Numbered from the stretch's first letter, positions 890-53,790 are shown. The stretch is 57,412 bases of DNA from Rhodospirillaceae bacterium (GCA_009773045.1 WOUV01000001.1:1-57412), one strand, 5' to 3'. The notes: generated from the sequence alone by a model not told the origin. Made by a program: numbers and translations.

Positions 890-937
890 ACGGAAACGAG
901 GACGTGCGGGAGAGGCCATGCCTCTCCCACACTTTTT

Positions 938-1936: not shown

Positions 1937-2308
1937 GGGCCTCTCCCTCCTGTTTCAGAACGCTTCGTTCATGGGTTTCAAGAACCAACTTTCACGTTAG
2001 CCGCATGCCGGCATCACGCATATCTTAAGTTGCTGTAGCGGATTTGCGGCATTGCAGCAACCCCTTTGTTGAATCGCACAGCGCCCCAAAGGCTTCAGAC
2101 CTGTCCGATCGGTCAGGGGGAGTATCATGAACACGCGTCTGCCATGGCAGGGATGAAACGGAATGGAAAGACGGCGGGGAAACGGCGGAGAGGGCCGCGG
2201 GGAAACGGAAAAAAGTGCGCGTTTTCACCAAGATGGTGCCACACAACACCCCACCCGGGAGCGGTGATCCCCGAATCCGTGCCCCCACTCCCGCCCTTTC
2301 GCAGGCTC

Positions 2309-17654: not shown

Positions 17655-17669
17655 GGGTGCATCCCCCCC

Positions 17670-18257: not shown

Positions 18258-18609
18258 GGTCTTCCCTCTGTCTTGAGTCAACAGAAATACAACCATCCCC
18301 CAACGATCATTGGGGAACGATTCGCAGAACCGTTCCCGCACCGTCTGCACAATGGCAAACACTCCCTTCTCACGACATGCGCTAATGACACGCGCCAACG
18401 CACGACCCAAAAGGGTACGCAGCAACATTCTCCTGCACTACACAATGGACAGTATCAATGAGTATGGTCTATACTTCAGGTATGGCGTATTGCTCTCGTC
18501 CATGTCCCCCTTGCCGTGCCACTTCCCCCCGTATCACCTCTTCCCGTCAAAGGCAAGACCTTGACGTGGAAGGGGTCGGAAAAAATACCAGAATCGTAAA
18601 AGTGCGGCC

Positions 18610-19236
18610 TCACTCCTCAACGCCTGAAGGCAACGTGTGGGCAATTCCCTGGTGGCAGTCTATACACGTTTTGCGTTCATCCCCTTTCTCTTTCATGATA
18701 CGCTGATGTTTCTTGGCGGCCGTTTTGTCCTGATCATCGAACTTCATGGCGTTGAAGTCATGGCACGAACGGCATTCACGGGAATCCGTCGCCTTCATTT
18801 TCGCCCATACGCCCTTGGCCATTTCAAGGCGGAGGGCCTCATATTTTTCCGGTGTATCGATGACCCCCGTGATGCGGCCCCAGACATCCTTGGCGGCAGC
18901 CAGCTTGGCCAAGTATTTCGGCAGACCGCCTTCCGGCACGTGGCAATCCGGACATTCGGCACGGACGCCAACACGGTTGAGATAATGTTTCGTCTTCTGT
19001 AACTCGTTGAGAGCGGTTCCCATTTCGTGGCATCTGGTACAAAAAGCCGTCGTGTTCGTGTTGGCCAGCGCCATATTGAACACGACGATGCCCCCCGCCC
19101 CCCCCACAAGACCGATGATGAGCACGACTCCCACGGCAAGTCGCGCACTGGGGCGCCACAACCACATCCAAAGCCGCCTGATGACGTTCAAGGTTATTCT
19201 CCCCCTAAAATCCATAGCATTTTTTGCATACACCAT
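18610..19236 (-). CDS. NapC/NirT/CymA-family membrane-anchored tetrahaem cytochrome c
   Basis: N-terminal TM helix (LAVGVVLIIGLVGGAGGIVVF) and four CxxCH (CTRCH, CPDCH, CRSCH, CIDCH) with family-typical spacing. Confidence 0.8.
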   Translation of the reverse strand: MVYAKNAMDFRGRITLNVIRRLWMWLWRPSARLAVGVVLIIGLVGGAGGIVVFNMALANTNTTAFCTRCHEMGTALNELQKTKHYLNRVGVRAECPDCHVPEGGLPKYLAKLAAAKDVWGRITGVIDTPEKYEALRLEMAKGVWAKMKATDSRECRSCHDFNAMKFDDQDKTAAKKHQRIMKEKGDERKTCIDCHQGIAHTLPSGVEE

Positions 19237-19526
19237 GAGCCTGGCACTAATTCTCTTGGCGGCAGACAGATTTCACGATAGATTGCCATTTTCTAATTCA
19301 TTGGCCGTCCGAGACAAGGGGATTGAACGAACAACAGAAACAAAAAAATACGAAAATAGAGATGAAGACAAAGGGAAATTGGCCATGATATAAATCATGG
19401 GGGGGGCAGAATCGATGACAAAGGTCAAGAAAAGGGGCTGCCGAGGGAAAAAGCATTTTCGCCTGTTCCCGTCGTGGGCCATGATGGCGACGAGGGGGGG
19501 GAGTGTGTGTGCATAGGGAGGACTAG

Positions 19527-20015
19527 ATGTCAGAGAACGCCAAAAGCATGTCGATCATTGTGACCAAGGGCACACTGGACTGGGCGTATCCTCCGTTCAT
19601 TCTGGCGACCACGGGCGCCAGCATGGGGCTTAATGTCACGTTGTTTTTCACCTTTTACGGATTGGCTTTGTGCAAGAAAAAACTTGACTTGAAAGTCACC
19701 ACCCTTGGCAATGCCGCCATGGAAATGCCGATAATGGGCATGCATCTTGCCATGCCCAATATGGTGGGCATGTTGCCGGGGATTGATGGCTTCGCCACGG
19801 CCATGATGAAGGATCTCATCAAGAAAAAAGGGGTGGCCTCCATCGAGGAACTGCGGGAACTGGCCAAGGAGGCCGAGGTGCGCATGATCGCCTGCCAGAT
19901 GACCATGGATCTGTTCGAGTACAAACAGGCGGACATGATGGACGGGATCGAATACGCCGGCGCGGCCACGTATATTGAAACCGCCACCAAATGCGACATC
20001 AATCTGTTCATTTGA
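19527..20015 (+). CDS. DsrE/DsrF-like sulfur-relay family protein (DsrE2/3-like)
   Basis: 162-aa ORF (SIIVTKGTLDWAYPPFILATTGASMGLNVTLFFTFYGL, conserved Cys in MIACQMTMDLF). The next gene is tusA. Confidence 0.7.
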   Translation: MSENAKSMSIIVTKGTLDWAYPPFILATTGASMGLNVTLFFTFYGLALCKKKLDLKVTTLGNAAMEMPIMGMHLAMPNMVGMLPGIDGFATAMMKDLIKKKGVASIEELRELAKEAEVRMIACQMTMDLFEYKQADMMDGIEYAGAATYIETATKCDINLFI

Positions 20016-26002: not shown

Positions 26003-27375
26003 GACCCTGCCATCCGCCGGAAAGAATCGACCACCCCCTGCACGTGCCCCACCTCGCGGATCGCCAGCCCCCTTTCCCCCTTTCCCCCGGAACGGTGGGG
26101 CGGTGGGATCATGGCCTGAACGAATCCAAGTTTGACCGCTTCCTTCAGCCGGACATCCCGTTGCGCGACGGCGCGAACCTCGCCCGACAAACCGATCTCC
26201 CCGAAAACCACCATGTCCGCCGCCACTGCCATACCCGTTGCCGCAGACACGAGAGCGGTGGCCACGGCAAGATCCGCCGCGGGTTCGGTGATGCGCAATC
26301 CCCCGGCAACGTTCAAATAAACGTCCCGCGCGCCCAAAGCAAGACCGCAACGCGCCTCCAGCACGGCCAGCACCATGGCGAGGCGGTTACCATCCCACCC
26401 CACCACGGCCCGGCGCGGCGTGCCGGGCGTGCCCACCAGGGCCTGGATTTCCACCAGCACGGGCCGCGTGCCCTCGATGCCCGCAAAGACGCAGCTTCCC
26501 GCAACATTGCCCCGCCGTTCGGCCAGAAACAGGGCCGACGGATTGGCAACCTCCGTCAGGCCGGCGCCGGTCATCTCGAACACGCCGATTTCATTGGTCG
26601 GACCGAAGCGGTTTTTCATGGCCCGCAGAATGCGAAACGGGTGGCCGCGTTCGCCTTCGAAATACAAAACGGTATCGACCATGTGCTCCAGCACCCGGGG
26701 ACCGGCGATCATGCCTTCCTTGGTGACATGTCCCACCAGAAACAACACAAGCCCCCGTCGTTTGGCAAGACGGATCAGTTCGTGGGCGCTCGCGCGCACC
26801 TGGGCCACCGTTCCCGGCGCCGAGTCGAGGGTATCGACGAACATGGTCTGGATGGAATCGATCACCACCACCGTCGGAGGGACGGCAGTGTCCAGGGTGG
26901 CGAGGATGTCGCGCACACTGGTGGCCGTGGCGAGATCGACCTTGGTTTTGGCAAGGCCCAGCCGGACGGCCCGCAGCCGCACCTGGTCCACCGCCTCCTC
27001 GCCCGAAATGTAGATGGAACGGGCGGCGCCCGCCAGGGCAGCGCACGCCTGGAGCAACAGGGTAGACTTGCCGATGCCGGGGTCGCCCCCGACCAGCAGC
27101 GCCGATCCCCCCACCAGCCCGCCGCCGCACACCCGGTCGAGTTCGGCGATGCCGGTCGCGAGCCGGGCGGGCTGTTCGCTCGTGCCCGCAAGCCCGACGA
27201 ACACGACCCCCTGCCCCCCTTTTGCCGGGTCAAGCCCTTTGGGAGCGATGGCGGCCTTTGTTTCCTCCACAAGACTGTTCCAGCTTCCGCACCCCTCGCA
27301 TCGTCCGCCCCACCGGGCATGTGCCGTGCCGCAGGACTGGCAGACGAAAGCGGTGACGGCGCGCTTCATGGGCAC
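25999..27375 (-). CDS. radA: DNA repair protein RadA
   Basis: N-terminal zinc ribbon CQSCGTAHARWGGRCEGCGSWNS, Walker A GDPGIGKST, the KNRFG motif and a Lon-like C-terminal domain. Confidence 0.95.
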   Translation of the reverse strand: MPMKRAVTAFVCQSCGTAHARWGGRCEGCGSWNSLVEETKAAIAPKGLDPAKGGQGVVFVGLAGTSEQPARLATGIAELDRVCGGGLVGGSALLVGGDPGIGKSTLLLQACAALAGAARSIYISGEEAVDQVRLRAVRLGLAKTKVDLATATSVRDILATLDTAVPPTVVVIDSIQTMFVDTLDSAPGTVAQVRASAHELIRLAKRRGLVLFLVGHVTKEGMIAGPRVLEHMVDTVLYFEGERGHPFRILRAMKNRFGPTNEIGVFEMTGAGLTEVANPSALFLAERRGNVAGSCVFAGIEGTRPVLVEIQALVGTPGTPRRAVVGWDGNRLAMVLAVLEARCGLALGARDVYLNVAGGLRITEPAADLAVATALVSAATGMAVAADMVVFGEIGLSGEVRAVAQRDVRLKEAVKLGFVQAMIPPPHRSGGKGERGLAIREVGHVQGVVDSFRRMAGS

Positions 27376-27384
27376 ACCGCTCCC

Positions 27385-28068
27385 TCAGGCGCGCACCAGA
27401 TGGCCGGCCAGGAAGGCGGTGGTCCGTGACCAGGCTTCCTGCGCGCAGTCGGGGCGAAAATCTTCCCGCCGGTCACAGTTAAAGCCGTGTCCCGCCGCGT
27501 ACAAATGACACGTGACTTCCGGATGGGCCGCCATGATGGCGTCTTGATCGGCGGGGGGAATGATGGAATCATCCCGCCCGAAGTGCATCATGACCGGACA
27601 GAACGAATGCTCGTCAAGAAACTGGGCAATCTGCCCACCGTAATAGCACACGGCGGCCTGGAACGGCAGACGGCACGCCGAAAGCCATGCCAGGGACCCG
27701 CCCCAGCAGAAGCCCACCACCCCCACCGTGCGTTCGCCCCCTTCGGCGGCCACGTATTCGCGCGCGGCCTCGATATCGAGGAAGGGTTTTTCCCACCCCA
27801 AGGCCAGGCGGAGCGCCCGCCCCCGGGCCAGGTCCTCCGCGCCATAGTCCAAGGCGACGCCCCGTTCCAGCCGATCGAAAACGGCCGGGGCAATCGTTAC
27901 ATACCCTTCGTGCGCGAAACGATCGACAAGGGCGCGGATATGGCCGTTGACCCCAAAGACTTCCTGCATCACGACCAGACCGCCCCGCGAGGACCCGCCA
28001 CTCGGCCAGGCGACATAGGCCTCGAAAAGATGCTCGTCCCGTGCCGCAAGCGTGATGATTTCTCCCAT
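27385..28068 (-). CDS. dienelactone hydrolase family protein
   Basis: DLH-family layout with nucleophile motif GFCWGG and C-terminal HGF. Start taken at ATG 28068, preceded by GGAAGGAAAGG. Confidence 0.75.
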   Translation of the reverse strand: MGEIITLAARDEHLFEAYVAWPSGGSSRGGLVVMQEVFGVNGHIRALVDRFAHEGYVTIAPAVFDRLERGVALDYGAEDLARGRALRLALGWEKPFLDIEAAREYVAAEGGERTVGVVGFCWGGSLAWLSACRLPFQAAVCYYGGQIAQFLDEHSFCPVMMHFGRDDSIIPPADQDAIMAAHPEVTCHLYAAGHGFNCDRREDFRPDCAQEAWSRTTAFLAGHLVRA

Positions 28069-31029: not shown

Positions 31030-32031
31030 GTGACCTTGCGTTTGTTCCGCCATTATACCGAGCTGCCCGCCGATGTGCAGGGCGGCGTGGTCGCACTGGG
31101 TAATTTCGACGGTGTGCATCTAGGGCATCAGGCGGTCATCGGCACGGCGCGCACCATCGCCCAGGCCGCGGCCCTGCCGGTTGGCGTGATGACGTTTGAA
31201 CCCCATCCCCGCACCGTGTTCGCCAAAAGCGAAGAAGCATTTCGTCTGACGCCCTTTCGCATCAAGGCTCGCATCCTCGAAACATTGGGGATGGATTTCC
31301 TGATTGCCCAGCATTTCGATCTGGCCTTCGCCCGACATACCGCGACGGAATTCGTCGATCACGTTCTGGTGGAAGGAATGGGCGTGCGTCACGTGGTCGT
31401 GGGATACGATTACCTGTTCGGCCAGAACCGCGGCGGAGATGTGAGCACTTTGGAGACCATGGGGCGGAGCTGCGGCTTTGCCGTGACCGTGGTGCCGCCA
31501 GTGTGCAACGCCGATGGCAGGATCCATTCCTCGACCGGCGTGCGCACATGCCTGATGGAAGGGCGCCCCCGTGAAGCCGCCCTGCTGCTGGGGCGCTGTT
31601 TCGAGGTGGAAGGGCGTGTCGAGCACGGCACGGAACGGGGGCGGCGGTTGGGGTATCCCACGGCCAACCTGCATCTTGGTGAATACCAGCCGCCCCACAC
31701 CGGAGTGTATGCCGTGCGCGCCGGGGTGGACCGGGGCGGAGACACGCTGTGGCACGATGGCGTCGCCAATTACGGACGTCGCCCCAGTTTCGACAATGGT
31801 CCGCCGCTTCTGGAGGTTCATCTGTTCGATTTCGCCGATGATTTGTATCATCGCCATTTGCGGGTCGCCTTGGTCGAGTTCCTGCGTCCCGAGCGCCGTT
31901 TCAACAGCTTCGAAGCGCTGCAAACGCAGATCGCCGCTGATTCCGCGCACGCTCGGGCTGTCTTGCGTCCCTTCGCCGCCTCCGCCGACCGCCCCGCCCC
32001 CATGGTGCCAAACCCGACGGCCCCTTCATGA
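31030..32031 (+). CDS. ribF: bifunctional riboflavin kinase / FMN adenylyltransferase
   Basis: GNFDGVHLGHQAVI in the FAD synthetase domain. GYPTANL and LEVHLFDFADDLY in the kinase domain. GTG start. Confidence 0.9.
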   Translation: MTLRLFRHYTELPADVQGGVVALGNFDGVHLGHQAVIGTARTIAQAAALPVGVMTFEPHPRTVFAKSEEAFRLTPFRIKARILETLGMDFLIAQHFDLAFARHTATEFVDHVLVEGMGVRHVVVGYDYLFGQNRGGDVSTLETMGRSCGFAVTVVPPVCNADGRIHSSTGVRTCLMEGRPREAALLLGRCFEVEGRVEHGTERGRRLGYPTANLHLGEYQPPHTGVYAVRAGVDRGGDTLWHDGVANYGRRPSFDNGPPLLEVHLFDFADDLYHRHLRVALVEFLRPERRFNSFEALQTQIAADSAHARAVLRPFAASADRPAPMVPNPTAPS

Positions 32032-32050
32032 AGGAGGGGGCTTGGTTTTT

Positions 32051-34114
32051 TCACCCCCCGGCATGGTAACGATGACACAAAGTGCACCCTTGTGTTGCGT
32101 TTCCCTCGACATGACACGTTATGCAAACCTGCCGCGGTGTCGGGCGAAAAGCCGTTGCCGTGGGGGAACGCCAGGGATGACAGGCAAGACAACGCCCCTC
32201 GTCCGACAGAAGCGCCGGCGGAAGGGAATGGGGGGCGTGGTCAAAGGTTATAAAGGACTCCTCCCTGTGACGGCGAAAGGCCGGCGCCCATGGCTCGTCA
32301 CCCTGCCGGAACGTCTGGAGGGAATGGCATGTCAGACAGCGTTTGCCGGGGTCTCCAGATGCGATATCGTTCCCATCATCGTTGTCATCGTTCCCGATTG
32401 CCGGCGCTACCGTCACGATCATCTCAAGCCAGGCGCGCAAGAACGGATCGGCATGGGCCATGGGCCGGTAATACAACGTGAATCCCTTGCGATACCAGCC
32501 TCCGTACCGTTCTCCTGGATCGGCGGCGGGCAGGCTTCCCGGATTGGCGGCGGCGCGCGTAGTCCAGGGCGATGTTTCATCCTCTGACAGAAGACCATCC
32601 TCCTCGGGCAGAATTTCATCATCATCCTTGGAAAGCACAGTGCGGTCCACGGGAACGAGGGTCTCCTCCTGACGGGGCGGGGGAGAGGCGGGTGGGATCA
32701 CGACGCGCTCCCCGGCGCGAAACCGGGTGATTTCCTCCGGCAGGGCCGCAAGCCATTCCCGTTGCAAGGCCATCAGGACATCGCGCGGCAGGCCGGCCAT
32801 CAGGCGGACCAGAACGTTTCTCTCCGGCGCGTGCCCCAGGTGCGCCTGAAGCCGCGCTGCCAGCGCCGCATCGCCGGAGTCGATGAGATCCTGAACAAGG
32901 TTCTTGATCGCCCAGGCCAGCCGTTCCACCGCGGCGATTGTTTCCGGTGGGACCTTCGTCAGATCGCGCAGAACGATCCCGTCGAGGTGCGCAAGGTCGA
33001 CGGCGGCCTCCGGCAGCAGAAGCCAGGGCATGAAGGGTGTCAGTCGCGCCGTTGAAGACTCGGGCCATGTGCCGATGGCCGCTGCCCGCTGGCGCAAGGT
33101 TTCCAGATCCAGGCCGGGCAGGGAAAGAAAAGGGACCCCCCCCACTGCCGCCACCGTGCCGTCGATCTTGGATTGATGACAGTCGGCGCAAACGACATCG
33201 AACCGTTGCAGCCGCATGCCGGGGGATCCCTCTGCCACAAGGTGACAGGTGGTGCAGGTTATTTTCCTGTCCGTCACCTGAGCAGGGAACACGGTGTTGA
33301 TATGCTTGCCATGATTGAACGTGATTCGGGAAGGACCGACGGGATAGGAACCTGTCCGGGCATGTTCGTCGGCCGCCTGCGCGAACCAGCGCCCATGACA
33401 GCCCTGGCAGCGTATGCCGTCCCGGCCGCGCAGATCCGCCGCACGGCCGCGGTGTTCCCCATGGCAGAAGAAGCAGGCCACGGTATCGATCGACGTTTCC
33501 GCTGGGATCGTGTTCTCTGTCAAAGGGGTCTGCCGCAAGGCGGCCAGTCGCGCCCGTGGCAGGGTGTGGGGGGTCATCGGGTGGAGGCCACGCGCGTGGC
33601 ACCGCAGGCACCGCTCCGCCGCAACCGTTGGAGTGGGCCGGTGCGTGAGGGCTTGCGCCCACGCCGCCGGGTGCGTGGGCAGGGCGGCATGACAGATCGT
33701 GCAGTCCTCGATCATCCGGTGTTGCGGCGCCATATCGCCGGCCGCAAAATGCGCAAGGTCATGGCGGCTGCTGAAAAAGACGCCCATCAATCCAATGGTC
33801 AGAAGGGCCCCCCATACACTCAATACCCGTCGTCGGCCACGCCAGGTCCGGACGGGCACGCAAAAAGACCCTCCCTGCCCGCAGCGCCCATCGGGCAACG
33901 GCCCAGGCGCGCACGAACCGCCGGCGGTGCTGGGCCGGGTGCATTCCCAACGCTCGCCCCGGCGCGCCGGGGCGCACTGAAATGCACCCTGACACCGGCC
34001 TTTGCTGTCGGGTCCAAGGCGGCAGGGGGCCGTCTCATCGGTTTGACCGCAGTGCCACTTTTGGGTGGGACGTTCATAGGGGCTGTCACGATAGCCAAAC
34101 TTTTGCAGGCGCAT
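32051..34114 (-). CDS. signal-anchored decahaem cytochrome c with Cys-rich cytoplasmic N-terminal domain
   Basis: Ten CxxCH: CTICH, CLRCH, CFFCH, CQGCH, CTTCH, CADCH, then CLTCH, CLACH, CITCH, CTLCH. One TM helix (VLSVWGALLTIGLMGVFFS) is preceded by RGRRR. Eight Cys lie in the first 85 aa. The ATG is 3 nt after the upstream stop. Confidence 0.8.
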   Translation of the reverse strand: MRLQKFGYRDSPYERPTQKWHCGQTDETAPCRLGPDSKGRCQGAFQCAPARRGERWECTRPSTAGGSCAPGPLPDGRCGQGGSFCVPVRTWRGRRRVLSVWGALLTIGLMGVFFSSRHDLAHFAAGDMAPQHRMIEDCTICHAALPTHPAAWAQALTHRPTPTVAAERCLRCHARGLHPMTPHTLPRARLAALRQTPLTENTIPAETSIDTVACFFCHGEHRGRAADLRGRDGIRCQGCHGRWFAQAADEHARTGSYPVGPSRITFNHGKHINTVFPAQVTDRKITCTTCHLVAEGSPGMRLQRFDVVCADCHQSKIDGTVAAVGGVPFLSLPGLDLETLRQRAAAIGTWPESSTARLTPFMPWLLLPEAAVDLAHLDGIVLRDLTKVPPETIAAVERLAWAIKNLVQDLIDSGDAALAARLQAHLGHAPERNVLVRLMAGLPRDVLMALQREWLAALPEEITRFRAGERVVIPPASPPPRQEETLVPVDRTVLSKDDDEILPEEDGLLSEDETSPWTTRAAANPGSLPAADPGERYGGWYRKGFTLYYRPMAHADPFLRAWLEMIVTVAPAIGNDDNDDGNDIASGDPGKRCLTCHSLQTFRQGDEPWAPAFRRHREESFITFDHAPHSLPPALLSDEGRCLACHPWRSPTATAFRPTPRQVCITCHVEGNATQGCTLCHRYHAGG

Positions 34115-34117
34115 GGC

Positions 34118-35020
34118 TCAAGGGCTTCCCGCCGTGAAGGCATGCACCAGGATCCCATGGGCCGCCGATACGATCAAAAGCGCCGCCGTCAGGGGAACAT
34201 GAATGAAGAGCCACCCTTTGAGCATCATGTGATGCGCATGCAGGTAATCCAGATGATCCTTGAAACGGATCAGCTTTTCGATTTTCCCAAGCGATTCGCG
34301 CCCTGCTTCGTCCAGATACCGTTCCAGCGGACGCATTTCAAGGCTGATCCGGTGCACGGGATGGTGGGATTGGAAAAGATGGAACAGCATATGACGCGGC
34401 CCCCTGAAAAACGGCGCGAGGCGATGGACGTAAAAGTCCAGAATGACCATCGATCCCGTATCGCGGGTAAACGCCATGACCTCCTGTTCGACCAGACGCC
34501 CAAGTTTTGCCCGAAAGAACGGAATGCGTTCCATGAAAATCATTTCGTTGTTGCGACGACGATCCCCCCCCGCCTCGATATCGGCACGAGAGATCTGCCA
34601 CAGACGGATATGCGGACGCTCATGCAATCGCGCCGGTAGAAAGGTATAGAACGCCGCGCCAATCACTCCGCTCACCGCCACTGCGACGAACAAAGACCAC
34701 AGCCACCAGTCAAATCGCCCCTGCGGCAACCGTCCATCCGTATGCAGGACAAACACCCCCACCGCGCCCCAGCCGGTGGCGATGTGCACCCGTTGCTGCA
34801 CGGATGCCTTGAGAGTTGAGAGAGTGACAAGCCTTCGTTGCATGCCGAACAGCGCAAGCCAGCCCACGATCCCCACAAGCTCCCAGCCACTGAGGAACCG
34901 CACATCCCGGAAAGAGAAGGAAAAAGAGGCAGCGTACAAATGATTCGCCGCAAGAATCCCTCCCGCCAGAACGACGGTCGGAAAAACCTGCGCGGCCAGG
35001 CGTCCGAAAAACATCGTCAT
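34118..35020 (-). CDS. 5-TM membrane protein with two H-x13-H helices (putative dihaem b-type electron carrier)
   Basis: Four N-terminal hydrophobic helices, an Arg/Lys-rich loop of about 135 aa, and a fifth helix. His79/His93 (HIATGWGAVGVFVLH) and His274/His288 (HVPLTAALLIVSAAH) both have 13 intervening residues. ATGA overlap with the upstream gene. Confidence 0.6.
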   Translation of the reverse strand: MTMFFGRLAAQVFPTVVLAGGILAANHLYAASFSFSFRDVRFLSGWELVGIVGWLALFGMQRRLVTLSTLKASVQQRVHIATGWGAVGVFVLHTDGRLPQGRFDWWLWSLFVAVAVSGVIGAAFYTFLPARLHERPHIRLWQISRADIEAGGDRRRNNEMIFMERIPFFRAKLGRLVEQEVMAFTRDTGSMVILDFYVHRLAPFFRGPRHMLFHLFQSHHPVHRISLEMRPLERYLDEAGRESLGKIEKLIRFKDHLDYLHAHHMMLKGWLFIHVPLTAALLIVSAAHGILVHAFTAGSP

Positions 35021-36678
35021 GACCGTGCCAGCCAGCGGGCCAACGTGTAACGGTCACGCATATCGATGCGCACCAGGGCCTCGGTCGCGCAGGCCCGCTG
35101 GCAGGCCGGTCCGCCGCGCACGTCCGGGCAAAGATCGCATTTGGTGGCCCGCAAGGTCGGCTGCCGTCCGTTCCGCAACGGCCTGCCATCACTGTCTCGG
35201 ATCTCGACCATGCGGATGTCGTCATAGGGACAGGAATCGGCGCATGTGGCGCAGCCGATGCACAAGGTTTCGTCAATGACGACGCGGCCCGCCTGCGCCA
35301 GGCGGTGAATGGCCCCTGTCGGACAGCCGATCAGGCACACCGGGTCCACGCAATGCATGCAGGCATTGGCCACCATGATGTTGGTGCAATCCCGACCATG
35401 GCGGAGAAAGCGTGGATTGTTGTCATGGACAAGGCTGCACGCCCGCACGCACTCATCGCATTCCGTGCACCGGTCAAGATCGATGAGCATGACCGCGGTG
35501 CCATTGATGAAGCGATTGTCGATGAAGAAATCGATCAGGGCCTGTTCACGTCCCGACAGGGGCGGTCCTCCCTCCCTGAACGTGACGGGTCGCGGCGTGA
35601 AATCAGCCGACAACCGTGGCAGCACGTGCGCCTGCAAAACCTCCACCGGCACCTTCAGCACGTCGACATGCCCGATGGCGCTGACCCGGTGTCGATACAC
35701 CGGATGTTCCTGGGTCAGGATTTCCTCGAGTCCGATCATCTCGTTCCGCGCGACGAATCCTTCTGTACGATAGCTGGAGCCGTGGCGGACGCTGACGCGG
35801 GCAAAGCCCGAGCAGACCACGAGCAAATGGTCCAGGGGTTGACCTTCGTCAACCACGACCGGCTCGTATTCGATGATGGTCGAAACGCCACGGGCCATGG
35901 CCTGTTTGAACGTTCGCGTCCATTCGAACGAACCATAGGTTTCAAATTCGGTTTCGCGGGTGAGAACGTCAAGGACGTTCCGTTCAAGGGTGGCGAACAG
36001 AACGGATTCCAGCAGATGATTGGCAAGGGCGCGGGAACCATAAAGGCCGTCCAGATACTTCCGGAAATGCACGTCCCGGTAACGGATTTCCTGCAATCCC
36101 TGCCAGCGCAATTCCAGAAGCGTTGCGTCGCTCTCGGCAAACACCGTGGCCGTTCTCGCGCTCCGGGCCAGGGCGGCGATCATGCCAAAGCTTTGTCCTT
36201 CCACCAGCACCCGGGTGGGAAACGCGGTGATGACGGTTTCTGGATCTTCAAGATAAAGACGGGAGCCGATCTCTTCCGCCCTGCGCAACCGCGCAAACCC
36301 GAATCGGTTGGCCTGTTCGTCGTGGCGAATTTCCGGCATGTTGGGGGTCCGCCATGTCTGAAGGAGGGTCGTAAACCATGGCTTGTGGTCGAAAACAGGC
36401 CGGGCCGTGATCAGTTTCTCCACGCCAGGATCGACCAGCACCCGCAGCCGGCCCTTCAGGATGCCAAAGACGGTATGGCCATAGTCCCCCCTGCGCACAA
36501 CAATGTCGCCACGCCGACAGTGCCGCACGCGCGCATGACGCACAAGGATATCCCGAAGAGAGGACCCGGGAGGAAAATTCGCCTCGTTGACGGCACGAAA
36601 AAGCGGCAGGGCCAGAACCGGCTCGAGATCCTGGTTCTGCGTGTCCGGATCAAAGGGAGGAGCATATGGTGCGTTCAT
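35017..36678 (-). CDS. two cyclic-nucleotide-binding domains fused to a four-cluster [4Fe-4S] ferredoxin module
   Basis: Two cNMP-binding-like beta-barrels (GDIVVRRGDYGHTVFGILKGRL ... FGMIAALARSARTATVFA; a second at about aa 225-345). Then CTECDECVRAC, CMHCVDPVCLIGCP, CIGCATCADSCP and CDLCPDVRGGPACQRAC, a PsrB/DmsB/NrfC-like arrangement. Confidence 0.75.
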   Translation of the reverse strand: MNAPYAPPFDPDTQNQDLEPVLALPLFRAVNEANFPPGSSLRDILVRHARVRHCRRGDIVVRRGDYGHTVFGILKGRLRVLVDPGVEKLITARPVFDHKPWFTTLLQTWRTPNMPEIRHDEQANRFGFARLRRAEEIGSRLYLEDPETVITAFPTRVLVEGQSFGMIAALARSARTATVFAESDATLLELRWQGLQEIRYRDVHFRKYLDGLYGSRALANHLLESVLFATLERNVLDVLTRETEFETYGSFEWTRTFKQAMARGVSTIIEYEPVVVDEGQPLDHLLVVCSGFARVSVRHGSSYRTEGFVARNEMIGLEEILTQEHPVYRHRVSAIGHVDVLKVPVEVLQAHVLPRLSADFTPRPVTFREGGPPLSGREQALIDFFIDNRFINGTAVMLIDLDRCTECDECVRACSLVHDNNPRFLRHGRDCTNIMVANACMHCVDPVCLIGCPTGAIHRLAQAGRVVIDETLCIGCATCADSCPYDDIRMVEIRDSDGRPLRNGRQPTLRATKCDLCPDVRGGPACQRACATEALVRIDMRDRYTLARWLARS

Positions 36679-36915
36679 GGTCGATTCCCTCCTGTCTCGT
36701 CATCCCTTCGAGGGGACTTCTCAAAACCTTTTTCTCCCCCTCGATGGAGGCGGGTTGGGGGGGGGGAGTGATGGAGGTGCCCCAGGATGGGTGGCGTTCC
36801 ATCTGTTGATGCACACATCGTGGAACGTTATCACTCTTTTCCAGACTCGAACACTCCTCCCCCTCCTTCCCCATTACGGGGGAAGGTTTTCAGCAAGGAC
36901 TCGGAAAAGGGCCGT

Positions 36916-38178
36916 TCAGGCATCCAAAACAAGTTCAGAGCTGTTCGGAACGGCGATGCAGACCAGGCAGCGCTTTTGTTCATGGTCAAACGTCGCCGGT
37001 GGTTCATCCACATGGCAGATGCTGCCCCGCAGCACCGATGTGGTACAGGCGCCGCATTTTCCGGTCCGACAGCCGGTGGCAAGAATGATTCCATTGGCCT
37101 CCGCAAGATCAAGCAGTGAATGCTGCTCCCCTGTCCATTGCAGCGTCTTGCCGGAGCGATTGAAAACGATGCGCGCGCCTTCTTGTCCGCCCGGGCGACG
37201 TCCTCCGTCCCCCGCCCGGATGCTGTCCGGGGTGAAAGCCTCGATGCGAATATCCTTGTCGGGGACGCCCCAGGCACGCAACCCGCTCGTGATTGCCTCC
37301 ATCATGGGAGGGGGGCCACAAACATAGAACAGATAATTACTGGCAGGAAGCGTTTGCCGGAGCATGTCGATCGTGACGTGGCCCCGATAATCATATCCTG
37401 TTCCCGGCGGCCCGACAGGCGCGCTGTGGCAGACCAGCACATGAAGGGTGTCGCAGGATTTGGCCAGACGGCGCAAGTGCTCGTGCATGATCTCCTGGGC
37501 CTCGTTGCGAACGCCATAGAAAAGCCAAGCCTCCCGCCTTTTGGGTGCGTGGGCCAGCGCCGTCAGCATGCTGATGAAGGGGGTGATGCCGATTCCCCCG
37601 CCCACCATCACCACCGGGCGATCGTCGTTGACATCCAGGAAAAAACGTCCCTCCGGCATGCGGATATCGACGGTGGCCCCTTCTTCCAAAGAATCATACA
37701 GGAAGTTCGATGCGGATGGAATCCCTTGCCCCAGGGCGAAAGGTCTGACCCGCTTGACGGTGATGCGATAATGGGTCTGGATCGCGCTTGGCGCTTCCGA
37801 AAGCGTGTAACACCGGATGACAGGCGCCGTCTGGTTCGGGATGTCAAGGGAAACCGCAATGTGCTGGCCGGGCAGAAAGGACGGAATGGGCTTACCGTCG
37901 TGCGCCGTTAGATAGAAGGAGCAGATGTCTTCGGTTTCCCTGACTTTGCGGTCGATGCGAAATTTCCGCCATCCTTCCCACGACAGGGCGGCATGCCGTT
38001 GCTCCTCCAGCCTGCGCTCTGCATCGATTCTGACACGCTGCGCGAAAACAGTCAGCATGTGCCGCGCATGACGTGTTTCTGCCAACCGTCGCCACACAAG
38101 GCCATACAAGGCCACCACCACCTGGACCAGGGACAGGCCGATGATGCCATAAGCGCCCCATTCAATGACATGTGTCAT
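36916..38178 (-). CDS. membrane-anchored FNR-type flavin reductase with C-terminal plant-type 2Fe-2S ferredoxin domain
   Basis: From ATG 38178 (preceded by GGAGGAG): TM helix GAYGIIGLSLVQVVVALYGLVW, FAD motif RCYTLS, NAD(P)H motif VGGGIGITP, YVCGPPPM, and 2Fe-2S ligands CRTGKCGAC plus CLVC. Confidence 0.75.
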   Translation of the reverse strand: MTHVIEWGAYGIIGLSLVQVVVALYGLVWRRLAETRHARHMLTVFAQRVRIDAERRLEEQRHAALSWEGWRKFRIDRKVRETEDICSFYLTAHDGKPIPSFLPGQHIAVSLDIPNQTAPVIRCYTLSEAPSAIQTHYRITVKRVRPFALGQGIPSASNFLYDSLEEGATVDIRMPEGRFFLDVNDDRPVVMVGGGIGITPFISMLTALAHAPKRREAWLFYGVRNEAQEIMHEHLRRLAKSCDTLHVLVCHSAPVGPPGTGYDYRGHVTIDMLRQTLPASNYLFYVCGPPPMMEAITSGLRAWGVPDKDIRIEAFTPDSIRAGDGGRRPGGQEGARIVFNRSGKTLQWTGEQHSLLDLAEANGIILATGCRTGKCGACTTSVLRGSICHVDEPPATFDHEQKRCLVCIAVPNSSELVLDA

Positions 38179-38304
38179 GCGCTTGAAATCTCCTCCCCCT
38201 TGCGTTTCCGGGGGAACGCGAGGCCCGCTCCCGGCTTCGAGAGCGCAGGGCGGGCTTCCCGTGACATCGTGTGCGGAAGGTCCACGTTCCATGAGACCCC
38301 ATTT

Positions 38305-39321
38305 CTAGGGTTTTCCCTTGAACCGTGTTTCATCCGGCAACAAACCATCGAGCGCCGCAAGCACGCTTCCATCGTACTTTTCAACCATCGCCCGGGTGGC
38401 CACGGCCACTGCTTCGGCGGCCTGGAGTAACGCGACGCGATGGTTGATGCGCAACCCGACAGCTTCGCTCGCCGCAAGGATCTGCGTTATTTCGGGAAGG
38501 GCAAGAAGCGTTGCGATCTGGCGCATTGTCTTCTGGGCGGCGCGTGCCCGCTTTGCCATCGCCACGGCATAGGGGCCTTTGGTCGTGCTTTCCGCCACCG
38601 CCCGCAGCGCGGTTTCCAGATTCACCGCCACCCCCACGAGAAAAATCAGTCTCTGCCGTTCACGATCTGGCAGCCGGTTTTCCGCACCCGGTGTCTCGGC
38701 GATGGCGTGACGCACTTCGCCAAGACTCCAGGCCAGCAGTTCAAGGGACTCATCGCCCGGTTTATGGCCCCCACGATCGACCAGTTCTTCGTCTGTCGGC
38801 ACGTGGCAAGCATAACATCGTTTTGCCCATTCATAAACCCGCACGGGCCGGAGCATTCCCTCCCGCTCGGCCCGCCGCCAGCGCCGGGTACGTTCCTCGG
38901 CGGATTCCGTCTCGCGGGTCTTGCCGGAAAACTCGGCATGGGGTTTGTTCCAGGCAAAGCCCGCCCCATGACAGGACTCGCACGACACGCCCCCCACCGC
39001 CACCCGTTTCCGGCGGTCCATGGCGATCGTTGCATGACAGCCGGTGCACCGTGAGGCAAGATCGGCGTTCCGGATGTCCAGCTTTCCGGCCATCGTTGCC
39101 GCTTCCGGTTTCTGCACAAGGGTGTTCAAGGCATTGGCATGATGGGAGGCCTGCCAGTGCGTGGTCACGGCCTTGTGGCACTGGGCGCAGGCGAAGGATC
39201 CAACCACCCGTTCCGGGTCAATGATATCCTCCGCCCCCGCCGTTTCCGCGTGAGCGGCCCATTCCGGCACGCCCCAGGCCAACCCTGTCACCAGGACAAG
39301 GAAAACAAGGCGTGATTTCAC
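38305..39321 (-). CDS. periplasmic tetrahaem cytochrome c (c554-like N-terminal domain plus helical C-terminal domain)
   Basis: The GTG at 39321 is preceded by GGGGAGA and gives the signal peptide VKSRLVFLVLVTGLAWGVPEWAAHA. Four CxxCH (CAQCH, CTGCH, CESCH, CYACH). The ORF-track ATG at 39441 would overlap the upstream gene by 50 nt. Confidence 0.7.
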   Translation of the reverse strand: MKSRLVFLVLVTGLAWGVPEWAAHAETAGAEDIIDPERVVGSFACAQCHKAVTTHWQASHHANALNTLVQKPEAATMAGKLDIRNADLASRCTGCHATIAMDRRKRVAVGGVSCESCHGAGFAWNKPHAEFSGKTRETESAEERTRRWRRAEREGMLRPVRVYEWAKRCYACHVPTDEELVDRGGHKPGDESLELLAWSLGEVRHAIAETPGAENRLPDRERQRLIFLVGVAVNLETALRAVAESTTKGPYAVAMAKRARAAQKTMRQIATLLALPEITQILAASEAVGLRINHRVALLQAAEAVAVATRAMVEKYDGSVLAALDGLLPDETRFKGKP

Positions 39322-39391
39322 GCCACATTCTCCCCAAGGTTCCCCCCCTCCCTGTCGTTCACGCGTGTCTTGCCCTGGAGTGTGTCCGCGG

Positions 39392-40792
39392 TTACCGGTC
39401 GGCTGGCAGGGTTTGCAAATGAGCGACCAAATCAATGACAATTTGTTTCTCCAATACCCGCATCGGAGGCATCAGCTCATCCGGATGGCCATTGAGAACC
39501 ATATGTACGGCGTGCCATGGATTCTGGCGTGTCATGTGTCCCAGTGGCGGGGCGTTCGTTATCTTCCGGCCATCGAAGCCGTGGCAGGGTGCGCATATCG
39601 CTTCGTAATAGTGTTTGTACCGAACCGGATCGCCTTTGGCCACCGCCCCGTCGATGAACGAATCCAAATCCACCAGTCCTTTGTTGATGAAGGTCGCAAG
39701 ATCGAACTGGTCCCGGGCGTTCAGAATGCCGTTGTAGCGGTGGTTGGAATCCCCAAGGATGGTCAGGACGTCCTCCACCGGCAAGCCCGCCCTTAGGCTT
39801 TTGGCGATGACGGAGGGGGTAATGGCCCTGGCCTGCCCTTCCGTTCCCCGATAGTCCCAGCCATGGCACCCGCCACACCGCCAAGTCATTTCAGCCTGTA
39901 CGCCCGTCGTTTGCGTGGCGGGATAGGCCGGATGGAATCCCTTTGGCGCCGTGGCATGCGTTTCCAGAATCCAGTTATCATACAGCCGCCCGCCCCGCAC
40001 GACGGCGGCCAGGACATCCCGCACCGGGGGAGCCGTGTCGTCCGCGCGCTCGGGCAATGTTTGGAGAAAGGCCAGAAGATCGGTGATCCTGGCCTGCCCC
40101 AGAACACCGATGGCCGGCATTTTGGTTCCCGGATGGCCGACGAGGAGCTTGTGCAGGGTTTCATAGGGGCTGTGGCGGGCAAGGAATCCCACCGGCGGAA
40201 TATCCCGCGTTTCCGTTCCGTTTGCGCCGTGACAGTTGCTGCACACGGTCATGTAGAATTCGACCTGGGTTGTCTTGTCCCCGCGCGCCTGCCCCGTGGC
40301 CGGGTCGATCGAGTCGTTCATTTCGACCTGTCCCTGGCTGACGAACGCCGCCAAGGCATTGATCTGGTCATCGTAGAAAATATCGTCATAGCCGTGCGCC
40401 GGCGCATTGAGGACCGCGGCGATCTTGGCCGGGTCGGTGCCACGGAGCGCCCACAGCCCCGCGATGCCAGTATAACGGTCGCTTGTCTTGCCGTAGGCAC
40501 CATCCTTTCCCTTGTAATCCCAGCCATGACACGTGGTGCAACGCCATGTTTCTGCGGGCGTGCCGGTAAGTTTCCCGCCCGCGGGATACAGGGGATGGCG
40601 AACCTGGGGCGGCTTGTAGCGCAGTTCGAGAATCCAGTTGTCATACAGCCGCCCGCCAAGGGCGACCGCCCCTGGCACCTCCCCGGTCCGCGCCGGCACC
40701 CCCGACATGACCATCAGAACGCCTGCCACGGCAGCGAAGCGCACTCCCCTCCACAGCGTCTCCGCCATGGCCTTGCATACAATGTTCATCAT
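39392..40792 (-). CDS. periplasmic tetrahaem cytochrome c built from two tandem dihaem modules
   Basis: ATG 40792 is preceded by GGAGGGGGGGG. Signal peptide present. Module 1 (40049-40657) and module 2 (39401-39994) each start GGRLYDNWILE. Each contains WRCxxCHGWDY(K/R)G plus a class-I-like CxxCHG...MP site, and ends LQTLP. Confidence 0.75.
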   Translation of the reverse strand: MMNIVCKAMAETLWRGVRFAAVAGVLMVMSGVPARTGEVPGAVALGGRLYDNWILELRYKPPQVRHPLYPAGGKLTGTPAETWRCTTCHGWDYKGKDGAYGKTSDRYTGIAGLWALRGTDPAKIAAVLNAPAHGYDDIFYDDQINALAAFVSQGQVEMNDSIDPATGQARGDKTTQVEFYMTVCSNCHGANGTETRDIPPVGFLARHSPYETLHKLLVGHPGTKMPAIGVLGQARITDLLAFLQTLPERADDTAPPVRDVLAAVVRGGRLYDNWILETHATAPKGFHPAYPATQTTGVQAEMTWRCGGCHGWDYRGTEGQARAITPSVIAKSLRAGLPVEDVLTILGDSNHRYNGILNARDQFDLATFINKGLVDLDSFIDGAVAKGDPVRYKHYYEAICAPCHGFDGRKITNAPPLGHMTRQNPWHAVHMVLNGHPDELMPPMRVLEKQIVIDLVAHLQTLPADR

Positions 40793-40996
40793 GGTTCCCC
40801 CCCCTCCATTCTGGTATTCTGTAGGCAGCACCTGGATTTTTTGGTATCTTTCGTTCTGTTGCAACCCATACCATGCTGCCGTAAAAGGCAAAACCCTTTC
40901 ACCCTTCAGCGAAACAAAGAATTTTCTTGAAAAATAATCCAGGACCGCCGCCATGACAACGAAAAATGAAAAGACTTTACTCGTATCAACAACAGA

Positions 40997-41015
40997 TCCT
41001 ATCATTAATAGGATA
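40997..41015. promoter_or_regulatory. inverted repeat in the AT-rich leader upstream of the cytochrome genes
   Basis: atcctat catta ataggat (7-bp arms) inside the 367-bp AT-rich gap between the Crp/Fnr gene and the first cytochrome gene. It does not match the TTGAT-N4-ATCAA consensus. Confidence 0.2.
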
Positions 41016-41159
41016 CCACCGGTTCCCGATGTCCGGTGAACGATCCTCCAAGGCCCTCCCAGGAGAATTCCTGAAATGGTGGGGGCCGCCCTTTCTCAAC
41101 CCCTTCTCAGTCTCAATGGAAGGAATTTTTTCCTTTATCCTGCCCCCTTGCCGTGCAGG

Positions 41160-41885
41160 CTATGCGTCCTTGGCGATGCGCCGCAGAGCCGTCTCATCAC
41201 AGTGCACGCGATGGCTGTCGGCAGGAAGGATGACCTGTGTCCGTTTGAATTCGGCAATGACCCGGCTAGCGGTTTCGGTGGTCACGCCCAGCATGGCGCC
41301 CACGTCTTCCCGGCTGAACAGGTCGCAGTCGCCCCCCGGTTCATCGTGCAGGATGCGCAACAAAAGCCGCGCCACCCGCGCCCGCGCCGGCCCGGTGGGC
41401 ATCTCCGTGATCCACTCGTCGGCCCGTGCCACCGATTGGTGCCAACGCAGCATCAGCTGCCGATGCAGCCGGGGAGTTTCCTCGCTCAGGCGCTGCACGA
41501 CATTGCGCGGAATGCGACAACACACCGCCGCACGTAAAGCGACAGCAGCATGCTCGTAGTTGCGGTCAAGCAGAACCTCAAGGCCAAGGGTATCGCCCTG
41601 ACGTAACAGACGAACGATTCGTTGCGTTCCATCGGACAGGTATTGTACCAGCTTGATCAAGCCGCTGCGGACCGTAAAAACCGCCGATCCCTCATCGCCC
41701 GTTTCATAAAGAACGCTGTCGGCGTTGTAATGAACCTCCTCGATCGGAAGGTGAATAAGCGAGAAGTCAGCTTCATCGAGATCCGCAAACAACGCCATAT
41801 CCCGAATGCCACAACCGTGGCATTGGGCTTGAGAGGACCAGGAAGCATCAATTTTATGTTTTCTCACGGTCCCTGCGATCCACAC
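41160..41885 (-). CDS. Crp/Fnr-family transcriptional regulator
   Basis: cNMP-binding-like effector domain (ADSVLYETGDEGSAVFTVRSGLIKL) and C-terminal HTH (REDVGAMLGVTTETASRVIAEFKR). N-terminal CHGC pair only, not the full Fnr cluster motif. Confidence 0.8.
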   Translation of the reverse strand: MWIAGTVRKHKIDASWSSQAQCHGCGIRDMALFADLDEADFSLIHLPIEEVHYNADSVLYETGDEGSAVFTVRSGLIKLVQYLSDGTQRIVRLLRQGDTLGLEVLLDRNYEHAAVALRAAVCCRIPRNVVQRLSEETPRLHRQLMLRWHQSVARADEWITEMPTGPARARVARLLLRILHDEPGGDCDLFSREDVGAMLGVTTETASRVIAEFKRTQVILPADSHRVHCDETALRRIAKDA

Positions 41886-53641: not shown

Positions 53642-53763
53642 AGTTTTGAACCTTGCCTGCCGCAGACTCGGTCAGGAGTCTGGCGACAGACGCACAGGGG
53701 TTGACCAACCCGTACTATGGAAACGGGCACACCATTTCTGGTGTCCCCCATGCGCCTGTCATA

Positions 53764-53790
53764 GAAAAACCGCGCTTGAGAGGGCGCGGT
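53764..53790 (-). terminator. rho-independent terminator-like hairpin (minus strand)
   Basis: The minus strand reads accgcgc cctctcaa gcgcggt followed by tttttct. The 7-bp GC stem is at 53769-53775/53784-53790 and the U-tract comes from 53765-53769. Confidence 0.45.

Follow-up and report, generated by a model that had tools for sequence, protein, structure and literature searches.

A cluster of seven co-directional genes, a to g, occupies positions 32051-41885 (minus strand) of a 57,412-nucleotide stretch of DNA from a Rhodospirillaceae bacterium (GCA_009773045.1 WOUV01000001.1:1-57412), the whole of which is referred to here as the window. We report that five of these genes, c, d, e, f and g, are, as judged by sequence comparison, orthologous to ptdD, ptdC, ptdE, ptdF and ptdG, respectively, and that the cluster is a porin-less and pentahaem-less variant of the named but uncharacterised ptd system. 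Domain content, the conservation of ligand residues, synteny and fusions of PtdE to PtdF were all observed directly, and with these in hand we propose that PtdCDEFG probably constitutes a quinone-independent, outward electron conduit, which would take electrons from cytoplasmic NAD(P)H through the inner membrane and deliver them to cytochromes of the periplasm.

To our knowledge, the known bacterial routes to periplasmic or extracellular multihaem cytochromes start at the quinol pool (CymA, CbcL, ImcH, NapC/NirT). If the proposal is correct, electrons would pass directly from NAD(P)H by way of iron-sulfur (Fe-S) clusters and a b-type haem to multihaem c, bypassing both the quinones and the bc1 complex, and the cytoplasmic redox state would be coupled to periplasmic chemistry in a different way. 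A more far-reaching version sees in PtdCDEFG a widespread (at least 534 species), quinone-independent and NAD(P)H-driven exporter, a multi-subunit prokaryotic counterpart of NOX that feeds multihaem cytochromes, contains a new di-haem b family and a cytoplasmic eight-cysteine domain and is gated by ligand-binding domains of the cyclic nucleotide monophosphate (cNMP)-binding type within its Fe-S subunit; this we advance tentatively, considering it somewhat less likely to hold in full than to fail in some part. Were it true, the exporter would be a new class of respiratory or redox-balancing module, and the form found in the window, which is without PtdA and PtdB, would show that one core can serve more than one kind of periplasmic output. 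Nitrite oxidisers, planctomycetes, verrucomicrobia, SAR324, zetaproteobacteria and abundant Alphaproteobacteria from oxygen-deficient zones carry the gene set, and because it spans such organisms the function of ptd bears on marine nitrogen, iron and redox cycling.

The cluster as a variant of the ptd operon

The ptdABCDEFG operon was named from Alphaproteobacteria of oxygen-deficient zones by Elbon et al. (bioRxiv 10.1101/2023.11.21.568154), whose work is metagenomic and bioinformatic only and who call the function of ptd "completely unknown". Their description gives PtdA as a pentahaem cytochrome with a beta-sandwich, PtdB as a porin, PtdC as an FAD/NAD(P) oxidoreductase, PtdD as a periplasmic tetrahaem cytochrome, PtdE as a cNMP-binding protein with 4Fe-4S clusters (two are stated), PtdF as a 'ferric reductase-like' membrane protein and PtdG as a decahaem cytochrome (bioRxiv 10.1101/2023.11.21.568154). 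Literature searches for the ptd operon or its domain combination returned this preprint as their sole match. The initial annotation of the window had presented the cluster as complete but unnamed and as matching no known module; that it is not an already characterised complex stands, since ptd has been named on bioinformatic grounds only, whereas it can no longer be called unnamed, with c to g corresponding to PtdD, C, E, F and G.

The assignment of these five genes follows from the matches between the window proteins and the corresponding open reading frames (ORFs) at loci returned by the genome scan described below for four organisms that Elbon et al. list in their Table S7, Ferruginivarius sediminum, Tistlia consotensis, Roseibium aggregatum and Oceanospirillum sediminis D5, for which phmmer E values lie between 1e-32 and 1e-172. 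Against F. sediminum the values are 8e-114 for PtdC, 3.5e-83 for PtdD, 4e-172 for PtdE, 5e-45 for PtdF and 2e-112 for PtdG, while the product of e matches the Tistlia, Roseibium and Oceanospirillum loci at 1e-145 to 1e-149. The window shares with the ptd operon the domain set and the order E-F-G. It differs in having the order D-C where most loci have C-D, in lacking PtdA and PtdB, and in the addition of a tandem-dihaem tetrahaem cytochrome (b) and a Crp/Fnr gene (a). Three PtdA queries, run with phmmer against all ORFs of the window, gave matches at the level of the haem motif only, to NapC and to c, with E values of 1e-5 or weaker, and there is no five-haem ORF in the 57-kb window; three PtdB queries found no match in it at E values up to 10.

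To examine how the genes are distributed, we scanned a single genome for each species with an alignment of e homologues as the anchor, and this placed the PtdE anchor in at least 534 species genomes of many phyla. We examined 82 related loci, comprising 80 returned by the scan and two others with f homologues (L001 and L002). They come from Alpha-, Beta-, Gamma- and Zetaproteobacteria, Planctomycetota, Verrucomicrobiota, Acidobacteriota, Nitrospinota and SAR324, and also from Gemmatimonadota, Elusimicrobia, Methylomirabilota, Kiritimatiellae and Bacteroidota. A homologue of e is present in all 82, of f in 79, of g in 78, of c in 73 and of d in 72, the missing homologues being due mostly to contig ends, and the d/c/e/f/g set is syntenic in the 80 species genomes returned by the scan, as the suggestion that the genes travel together would have it. 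The commonest order is d-c-e-f-g (40 loci), the order of the window, c-d-e-f-g, being found in none of the 82; almost every locus has e, f and g side by side and in one direction. In the window, e and f overlap by ATGA (GGTCATGACG) and the junction of f and g reads TGA-GCC-ATG, a gap of 3 nucleotides. The stop-to-stop distance from e to f clusters around 818 nucleotides in the related loci, so that the overlap or abutment of these two genes is conserved across phyla.

Among the loci with complete 10-kb flanks (n=42), PtdA and PtdB are both encoded in 28 and neither is encoded in 14, which leads us to regard PtdAB as an accessory output and PtdCDEFG as the core. Clustering of the flanking ORFs of the related loci produced no conserved partner beyond PtdA-G, save for generic two-component sensor genes in 18 loci. 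Two further kinds of multihaem ORF were seen beside ptd genes: in Halofilum ochraceum (L083, 15138-18947, minus strand) a 1,269-amino-acid multihaem protein with faint matches to LVIVD repeats is encoded convergently to ptdG, and large ORFs of 8 to 10 haems flank PtdAB-less loci of Verrucomicrobiota and Planctomycetota (L025, L031, L044 and L054). Such ORFs may provide the core with other outputs.

Conservation on this scale also bears on the idea that the cluster is a chance juxtaposition of unrelated redox genes, which as an account of the whole we find scarcely credible. Genes a and b are indeed not conserved partners, intergenic gaps of 70-237 nucleotides occur within the seven-gene cluster, and a scan of the cluster for promoters and terminators returned sites at the level of chance; against this, however, stand the recurrence of d/c/e/f/g in 80 species genomes, the E-F fusions, and the conserved e/f overlap and f/g abutment. 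For c to g chance is contradicted by synteny, and for a and b it stands. The cluster had been described as a seven-gene unit, and of that unit the part from c to g is conserved while a and b, found in none of the 82 loci and only in close relatives, fall outside it.

Core proteins and the proposed electron path

The domain assignments made earlier for six of the seven products agree with Pfam and NCBIfam, the product of f having no match in either. PtdC (gene d, 36916-38178, minus strand) is a membrane-anchored NAD(P)H flavoprotein with FAD_binding_6, NAD_binding_1 and Fer2 domains and an N-terminal transmembrane (TM) helix; the plant-type 2Fe-2S domain is C-terminal (C370-x4-C375-x2-C378...C407) and the protein matches the NCBIfam Hmp reductase module at 4e-65. 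In a planctomycete soil metagenome-assembled genome (MAG) the FNR-type PtdC is replaced, upstream of E-F-G, by a Pyr_redox_2 flavoprotein, a substitution which suggests that input through a pyridine-nucleotide flavoprotein is the conserved role.

PtdE (gene e, 35017-36678, minus strand) combines two cNMP-binding-type domains with a four-[4Fe-4S] ferredoxin domain, as recognised by Pfam and NCBIfam (PF13247, Fer4_11, scores 36 bits against a cut-off of 26.2 bits), and has more than 3,562 homologues. Its sixteen cysteines, which lie in four classical motifs (C404/407/410/414, C440/443/448/452, C473/476/479/483 and C514/517/526/530), are all invariant, and this indicates a predicted complement of four [4Fe-4S] clusters. 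Among solved structures, the Fe-S domain is closest to HycB3 and HycB4 (from the hydrogen-dependent CO2 reductase), ArrB, HycB, NrfC and FdnH, every one of them a four-cluster electron-transfer subunit, the profile match to HycB3 in the PDB being significant at 7e-23. The protein has no Tat or Sec signal and lies N-terminal to the first TM helix in fusions with PtdF, and on these grounds we place it in the cytoplasm.

The closest counterparts of the cNMP-type domains in PtdE come from PKG, PKA and HCN channels. The family consensus of domain 1, FGEIAALSRxPRTAT, is a canonical phosphate-binding cassette; the window protein, however, reads FGMIAALARSARTAT, in which Met166 replaces the ribose-contacting Glu of at least 90% of homologues (FGMIAAL vs FGEIAAL) although Arg175 is kept. 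Domain 2 is non-canonical, with a long insertion and without the S/T residue. Ligand gating by these domains, put forward in the initial annotation as built-in cyclic-nucleotide sensing, is plausible for the family and less certain for the protein of the window.

Nine of the 120 best e homologues are 827-854 amino acids long, and four of these, of around 840 amino acids and from several lineages (P0053, P0062, P0064 and P0114), are fusions of PtdE and PtdF, one such fusion matching the PtdF profile through its C-terminal part at an E value of 2e-68. The Oceanospirillum D5 locus (L015, 9965-12541) likewise encodes an E-F fusion, of 858 amino acids, which explains the 'N/A' entered for PtdF of this organism in the published table.

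PtdF (gene f, 34118-35020, minus strand) is a protein of five TM helices and a predicted di-haem b carrier. A word-indexed search had given only three relatives, and the notion that the family is near-unique was abandoned once an exhaustive profile search returned 3,971 cluster representatives, 723 of them at E values of 1e-30 or below. Across 55 diverse homologues of around 30% identity there are eight invariant columns, among which are all four of the paired histidines that had been singled out in the initial annotation, H79, H93, H274 and H288. The motif H-x13-H occurs exactly twice in the protein, at 79/93 in TM3 and at 274/288 in TM5, and its spacing is that of cytochrome b in bc1 complexes. 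An AlphaFold2 model built from the 55 sequences (predicted local distance difference test, pLDDT, 87; predicted template modelling score, pTM, 0.80) consists of four TM helices, a cytoplasmic helical insert (residues 163-233) and a long helix (238-296) which contains TM5; an earlier model from four sequences was discarded, its pLDDT being 70.7 and its Foldseek matches meaningless. Since PtdE is without an export signal and, in some lineages, forms the N-terminal part of a fusion with PtdF, the N-terminus of PtdF should be cytoplasmic, and it follows that TM3 and TM5 both run from inside to outside, which would place H79 and H274 on the cytoplasmic side and H93 and H288 on the periplasmic side. 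The four invariant histidines thus fit a predicted pair of b-haems stacked across the membrane.

Membership of PtdF in the ferric-reductase family, the label given in the published description, was not adopted because the tests of sequence, fold and profile alignment with hhalign were negative. Gene f has no match to PF01794, and only 5 of the 55 homologues match it, all below threshold (best E value 6e-4, 17 bits against a cut-off of 28 bits). Neither the PtdF profile nor phmmer with f found anything significant among PDB sequences. The model has two pairs of histidines on two parallel TM helices (H79/H93 and H274/H288), at a spacing within the 12-14 residues typical of the superfamily, and with its five TM helices and cytoplasmic insert it does not have the six-helix fold of NOX, STEAP and MsrQ. 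The description that suits PtdF best is that of a new family bearing the marks of a di-haem cytochrome b.

The homologues of PtdF do show sub-threshold, in-register matches, to DUF4405 and Ferric_reduct on TM2-3 and to Ni_hydr_CYTB on TM5, and the last of these is among the grounds for a different view of the membrane step, in which PtdF-PtdG is a quinol dehydrogenase analogous to CbcL, CymA or ImcH, passing electrons from the quinone pool to the periplasmic multihaem cytochromes, and PtdC and PtdE are an auxiliary or regulatory input rather than the main donor. Reactivity with quinols or quinones is common among di-haem cytochromes b of the membrane (NarI, FdnI, CybB), and the want of an NrfD/PsrC subunit still allows a quinone site on PtdF itself. 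No quinone-site motif was identified, however, and a quinol oxidase would have no use for a four-cluster cytoplasmic ferredoxin that is translationally coupled or fused to PtdF, nor for the pyridine-nucleotide flavoprotein that is always nearby; we judge a quinol dehydrogenase to be unlikely.

On the periplasmic side, PtdG (gene g, 32051-34114, minus strand) is a bitopic decahaem cytochrome, in which a cytoplasmic Cys-rich domain (residues 1-95, 33830-34114) is followed by a TM helix (96-116) and by periplasmic groups of 6 and 4 CxxCH motifs separated by a haem-free stretch of around 280 amino acids. The eight cysteines of the N-terminal domain (C22, C31, C41, C47, C58, C68, C78 and C85) are invariant and belong to an internal repeat, C-x8/9-C-x2-GP-x3-G-x-C-x5/6-C-x-P, which occurs twice and precedes a basic stretch; the domain was present in 40 of the 40 homologues inspected, has no match in Pfam or the PDB and is assigned to the cytoplasm by the positive-inside rule. 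The protein had been regarded as signal-anchored: a TM anchor it has, but it is not merely signal-anchored, as residues 1-95 are a conserved domain in their own right. This eight-cysteine domain is new and does not appear in the paper of Elbon et al. It could bind metal or an Fe-S cluster, or dock PtdG on PtdE and PtdF, and the anchor helix of PtdG may be packed alongside the five PtdF helices. Matches of g to TmcA (5e-5), DmsE and MtrC are all below cut-off. PtdD (gene c, 38305-39321, minus strand), a periplasmic tetrahaem cytochrome with four CxxCH motifs, has a signal peptide, a c554-type domain (Cytochrome_C554, PF13435, 3.4e-15) and a helical C-terminal part of around 150 amino acids. Taken together, these analyses would revise the published description in three respects: four predicted Fe-S clusters in PtdE rather than two, no detectable ferric-reductase membership for PtdF and a putative cytoplasmic Cys-rich domain in PtdG.

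In the conduit that we propose, for which we infer the occupancy of the cofactor sites, the order of the carriers, the direction of flow and the physiological acceptor, NAD(P)H would reduce the flavin of membrane-tethered PtdC, whose 2Fe-2S cluster would pass electrons to the four [4Fe-4S] clusters of cytoplasmic PtdE, docked on PtdF or, in some lineages, fused to it. Two stacked b-haems of PtdF, held by H79 and H274 near the cytoplasm and by H93 and H288 near the periplasm, would carry the electrons across the membrane to the ten c-haems of PtdG, which its TM helix and Cys-rich domain would hold to PtdE and PtdF, and the four c-haems of PtdD would spread them in the periplasm. In most genomes the output would be the pentahaem PtdA and the putative porin PtdB; in the window it would be b, which would pass electrons on to the pool of soluble cytochrome c in the periplasm or to reductases there. 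Within PtdE, the cNMP-type domains may act as a built-in regulatory or ligand-binding module, and the neighbouring Fnr-like regulator may place the genes under the control of oxygen or redox state. The domains fit every proposed step, and the order of carriers put forward at the outset, from flavin and 2Fe-2S to four [4Fe-4S] clusters, a bis-His carrier and multihaem c, draws support from synteny, the fusions and the invariant histidines and cysteines.

As to direction, export from NAD(P)H (around -320 mV) should run downhill in redox potential with the membrane potential assisting, whereas inward reduction of NAD(P)+ would be uphill in redox and against the membrane potential, and the suggestion in the initial annotation that electrons might equally run in reverse is bioenergetically implausible. 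One form of it is inward flow as in Hmc, Tmc and DsrMKJOP, with periplasmic or extracellular donors such as sulfide (through the nearby FccAB), Fe(II) or H2 feeding the multihaem cytochromes, and the electrons crossing PtdF to PtdE, PtdC and a cytoplasmic acceptor. It can draw on a Tmc-like architecture of periplasmic multihaem c, membrane cytochrome b and cytoplasmic Fe-S protein, on the sub-cut-off TmcA match of g and on the presence of fccAB and napC/nirT 12-16 kb away in the window; yet the system ends in the cytoplasm with a flavoprotein of the FNR type for NAD(P)H, so that high-potential donors would have to reduce NAD(P)+ doubly uphill, neither a subunit of the HdrD/CCG type nor an acceptor of the DsrC type is encoded, and fccAB is unlinked to ptd genes in other genomes. 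We hold inward flow to be very improbable.

An outward line conserves no energy, and the more likely roles are therefore redox balancing or the supply of periplasmic or extracellular reductions, whether of iron, nitrogen oxides or the cytochrome c pool feeding periplasmic reductases. A particular case of the outward conduit, differing in purpose, is an assimilatory or protective supply of reductant, as opposed to a respiratory wire, in the style of FRE/NOX or Fre-MsrQ, gated by the cNMP-type domains, for tasks such as Fe(III) reduction for uptake or the removal of NO, hydroxylamine, nitrite or peroxide. The lack of energy conservation would suit it, as would the resemblance of PtdC to the Hmp reductase module and the Fnr-like regulator that adjoins the genes here; in other genomes PtdA is assigned to the NrfA COG, and nod-expressing bacteria of oxygen-deficient zones transcribe their ptd genes (bioRxiv 10.1101/2023.11.21.568154). 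With no catalytic periplasmic enzyme in the window cluster, and with 18 haems that seem too many for a simple supply line, we treat this purpose as possible but would not expect it.

Several observations weigh against an outward, quinone-independent conduit. The case for haem b in PtdF is one of conserved histidines, hhalign comparisons of PtdF with E. coli MsrQ (1% probability) and with YodB were not significant, and Foldseek found no match in the PDB to the 55-sequence model at an E value below 0.1; a quinone site on PtdF may also exist. Outward flow would dissipate the proton-motive force, so that a purpose beyond energy conservation must be assumed, and since PtdA and PtdB are absent nothing in the window points to an extracellular acceptor. 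The gaps between d and e (237 nucleotides) and between c and d (126 nucleotides) make transcription as a single operon less than certain, and the sole paper on ptd, itself bioinformatic, calls the function completely unknown. Handles for experiment are provided by the four histidines of PtdF, the sixteen cysteines of PtdE, the eight cysteines of the PtdG domain, the E-F fusions and the natural porin-less variant, and Roseibium aggregatum, Tistlia consotensis, Halofilum ochraceum and Ferruginivarius sediminum are cultured ptd hosts suited to genetics.

Genes a and b, gene boundaries and other features of the window

Gene b (39392-40792, minus strand) encodes a periplasmic class-I cytochrome whose four haems are carried by two tandem dihaem modules resembling DHC/DUF1924 (Pfam; four CxxCH), and belongs to a family of c-type cytochromes of around 450 amino acids found in Rhodospirillales-type bacteria (for example Magnetovibrio, Magnetospira, Azospirillum and Skermanella). 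The 82 related loci contain no counterpart of either a or b, and b was rejected as a general component of Ptd, there being no homologue within 10 kb of the PtdE gene in any of them. It is linked to ptd genes in close relatives only. In one, L084, the homologue is 82% identical and the order of a cNMP-binding gene, b and a c554-type gene is that of the window. In another, the alphaproteobacterial MAG GCA_039908285.1, a homologue of 56% identity adjoins ptd genes in the rearranged order E-F-G-C-D-b (L085), and a paralogue from the same MAG is solitary (L086). As b is absent from the 82 loci and linked to ptd in such relatives alone, it is a lineage-specific add-on of a PtdAB-less sub-clade, outside the conserved module; it occupies the position that PtdA/PtdB hold in most loci. 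At L085, which belongs to the sub-lineage of the window, a 767-amino-acid fusion of cNMP-binding, acetate kinase and PTAC (phosphotransacylase-type) domains is encoded directly upstream of the ptd genes and divergently from ptdE (175-2478, minus strand).

Gene a (41160-41885, minus strand) encodes an Fnr-like regulator of the Crp family with cNMP_binding and HTH_Crp_2 domains, its Pfam and NCBIfam matches all lying below equivalog cut-offs, and the Crp/Fnr gene is kept only in the closest relative (L084). Cysteines at positions equivalent to those of FNR (C22-x2-C25 and C121-C122) and a recognition helix with E-x2-S-R are present. We regard a as a lineage-specific neighbour that hints at oxygen or redox control of the cluster.

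All seven minus-strand ORFs were recovered by an ORF scan, and the coordinates given earlier for them, the total of 4 + 4 + 10 = 18 CxxCH motifs (counted by script), the ATGA overlap, the 3-nucleotide gap and the AT-rich leader were all confirmed. Longer ORFs enclose b (39392-41005), c (38305-39441) and d (36916-38292), and the internal, shorter starts are preferred because of the signal peptides of b and c and the match to homologue length of d. The ATG of b at 40792 comes right after GGAGGGGGGGGAACC and its product begins with a signal peptide; c starts with GTG at 39321, its product beginning with MKSRLVFLVLVTGLAWGVPEWAAHA (MKSRLVFLVLV...AHA); and the ATG of d at 38178 gives a protein of 420 amino acids, the homologues having 416-441. 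A GGAG-polyG-AACC string lies 5' of both tetrahaem genes, with 8 G before b and 7 G before c. Before c it sits 20 nucleotides ahead of the start codon, and a nearer GGGGAG is the likelier Shine-Dalgarno sequence.

The leader 5' of b (40793-41159, minus strand; 367 bp) has a GC content of 48% as against 61.6% in the window. It contains one promoter-like site, at 40959-40931, which is no better than chance expectation, and one imperfect FNR-type box, TTGATACGAGTAAA, at 40989-40976. A search for TTGAT-N4-ATCAA with up to two mismatches, the number that this box has, found 25 sites where 15.6 were expected, and the box, being no better than chance, was rejected as evidence of Fnr control. An Rfam scan upstream of b returned no riboswitch or leader RNA. 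The sole terminator-like site at either end of the cluster, detected in a terminator scan, is a GC-rich hairpin at 32019-32042, between the stop codon of g and the convergent ribF.

Elsewhere in the window, a group of sulfur and redox genes (16353-20015) consists of FccB, the flavoprotein of flavocytochrome c sulfide dehydrogenase, with a Tat signal (16353-17654, minus strand), a dihaem FccA-like cytochrome (17670-18428, minus strand), a NapC/NirT tetrahaem quinol dehydrogenase (18610-19236, minus strand) and, closing the group, a DsrE/DsrF-like protein (19527-20015, plus strand). A 461-amino-acid ORF of high third-position GC content at 26044-27429 (plus strand) has no Pfam match at E values up to 0.001. 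At 53679-53766 (minus strand) Rfam recognises a C4 antisense RNA (RF01695; 62 bits against a gathering threshold of 45), an RNA type tied to P1/P7-like phages, and it may be what is left of a prophage close to the window's end.

Comparison with known systems

CbcL of Geobacter and MtrCAB/CymA resemble Ptd in that a membrane-bound b-type or multihaem protein gives entry to a periplasmic chain of decahaem scale; most ptd clusters further encode a putative porin-cytochrome pair. Those systems draw on the quinol pool, however, and the window cluster is without a porin; the sequence similarity is one of generic multihaem motifs under family cut-offs. Pfam and NCBIfam recognise no porin of the Mtr, Pio or Mto type among the seven products, the rest of the window not having been scanned with a porin profile.

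With FdnGHI and HybA, the system has in common a ferredoxin of the four-cluster family of HycB, NrfC, FdnH and HydN paired with a di-haem membrane protein. The topology is mirrored, with the ferredoxin of PtdE placed in the cytoplasm rather than the periplasm, PtdF belongs to an unrelated new family, and Ptd is without a molybdopterin or Ni-Fe catalytic subunit.

In architecture, the closest systems are Tmc, Hmc and DsrMKJOP, which likewise join periplasmic multihaem c, membrane b and cytoplasmic Fe-S proteins in a quinone-independent transfer. These complexes use cytoplasmic subunits of the HdrD/CCG type and membrane subunits of the HdrE/NarI or NrfD type, and their electrons flow inward to sulfite reduction, whereas Ptd has in addition an NAD(P)H flavoprotein and domains of the cNMP type. 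In Pfam and NCBIfam, no product of the seven genes matches the CCG, NarI or NrfD families above threshold, and the matches of e to HmcB, DsrO and QrcC are generic four-cluster matches far under the cut-offs.

In its proposed function, Ptd is closest to Fre and MsrQ (with MsrP) of E. coli and to NOX/FRE, in which cytoplasmic NAD(P)H, an FNR-type flavoprotein and two b-haems on the paired histidines of two parallel TM helices serve an acceptor on the outer side. PtdF is below the PF01794 threshold and has no Foldseek match to NOX, STEAP or MsrQ, and it has five TM helices and a cytoplasmic helical insert where NOX, FRE and MsrQ have six helices. Compared with all of these, Ptd interposes a four-cluster ferredoxin and has as its acceptors the multihaem c-type cytochromes.

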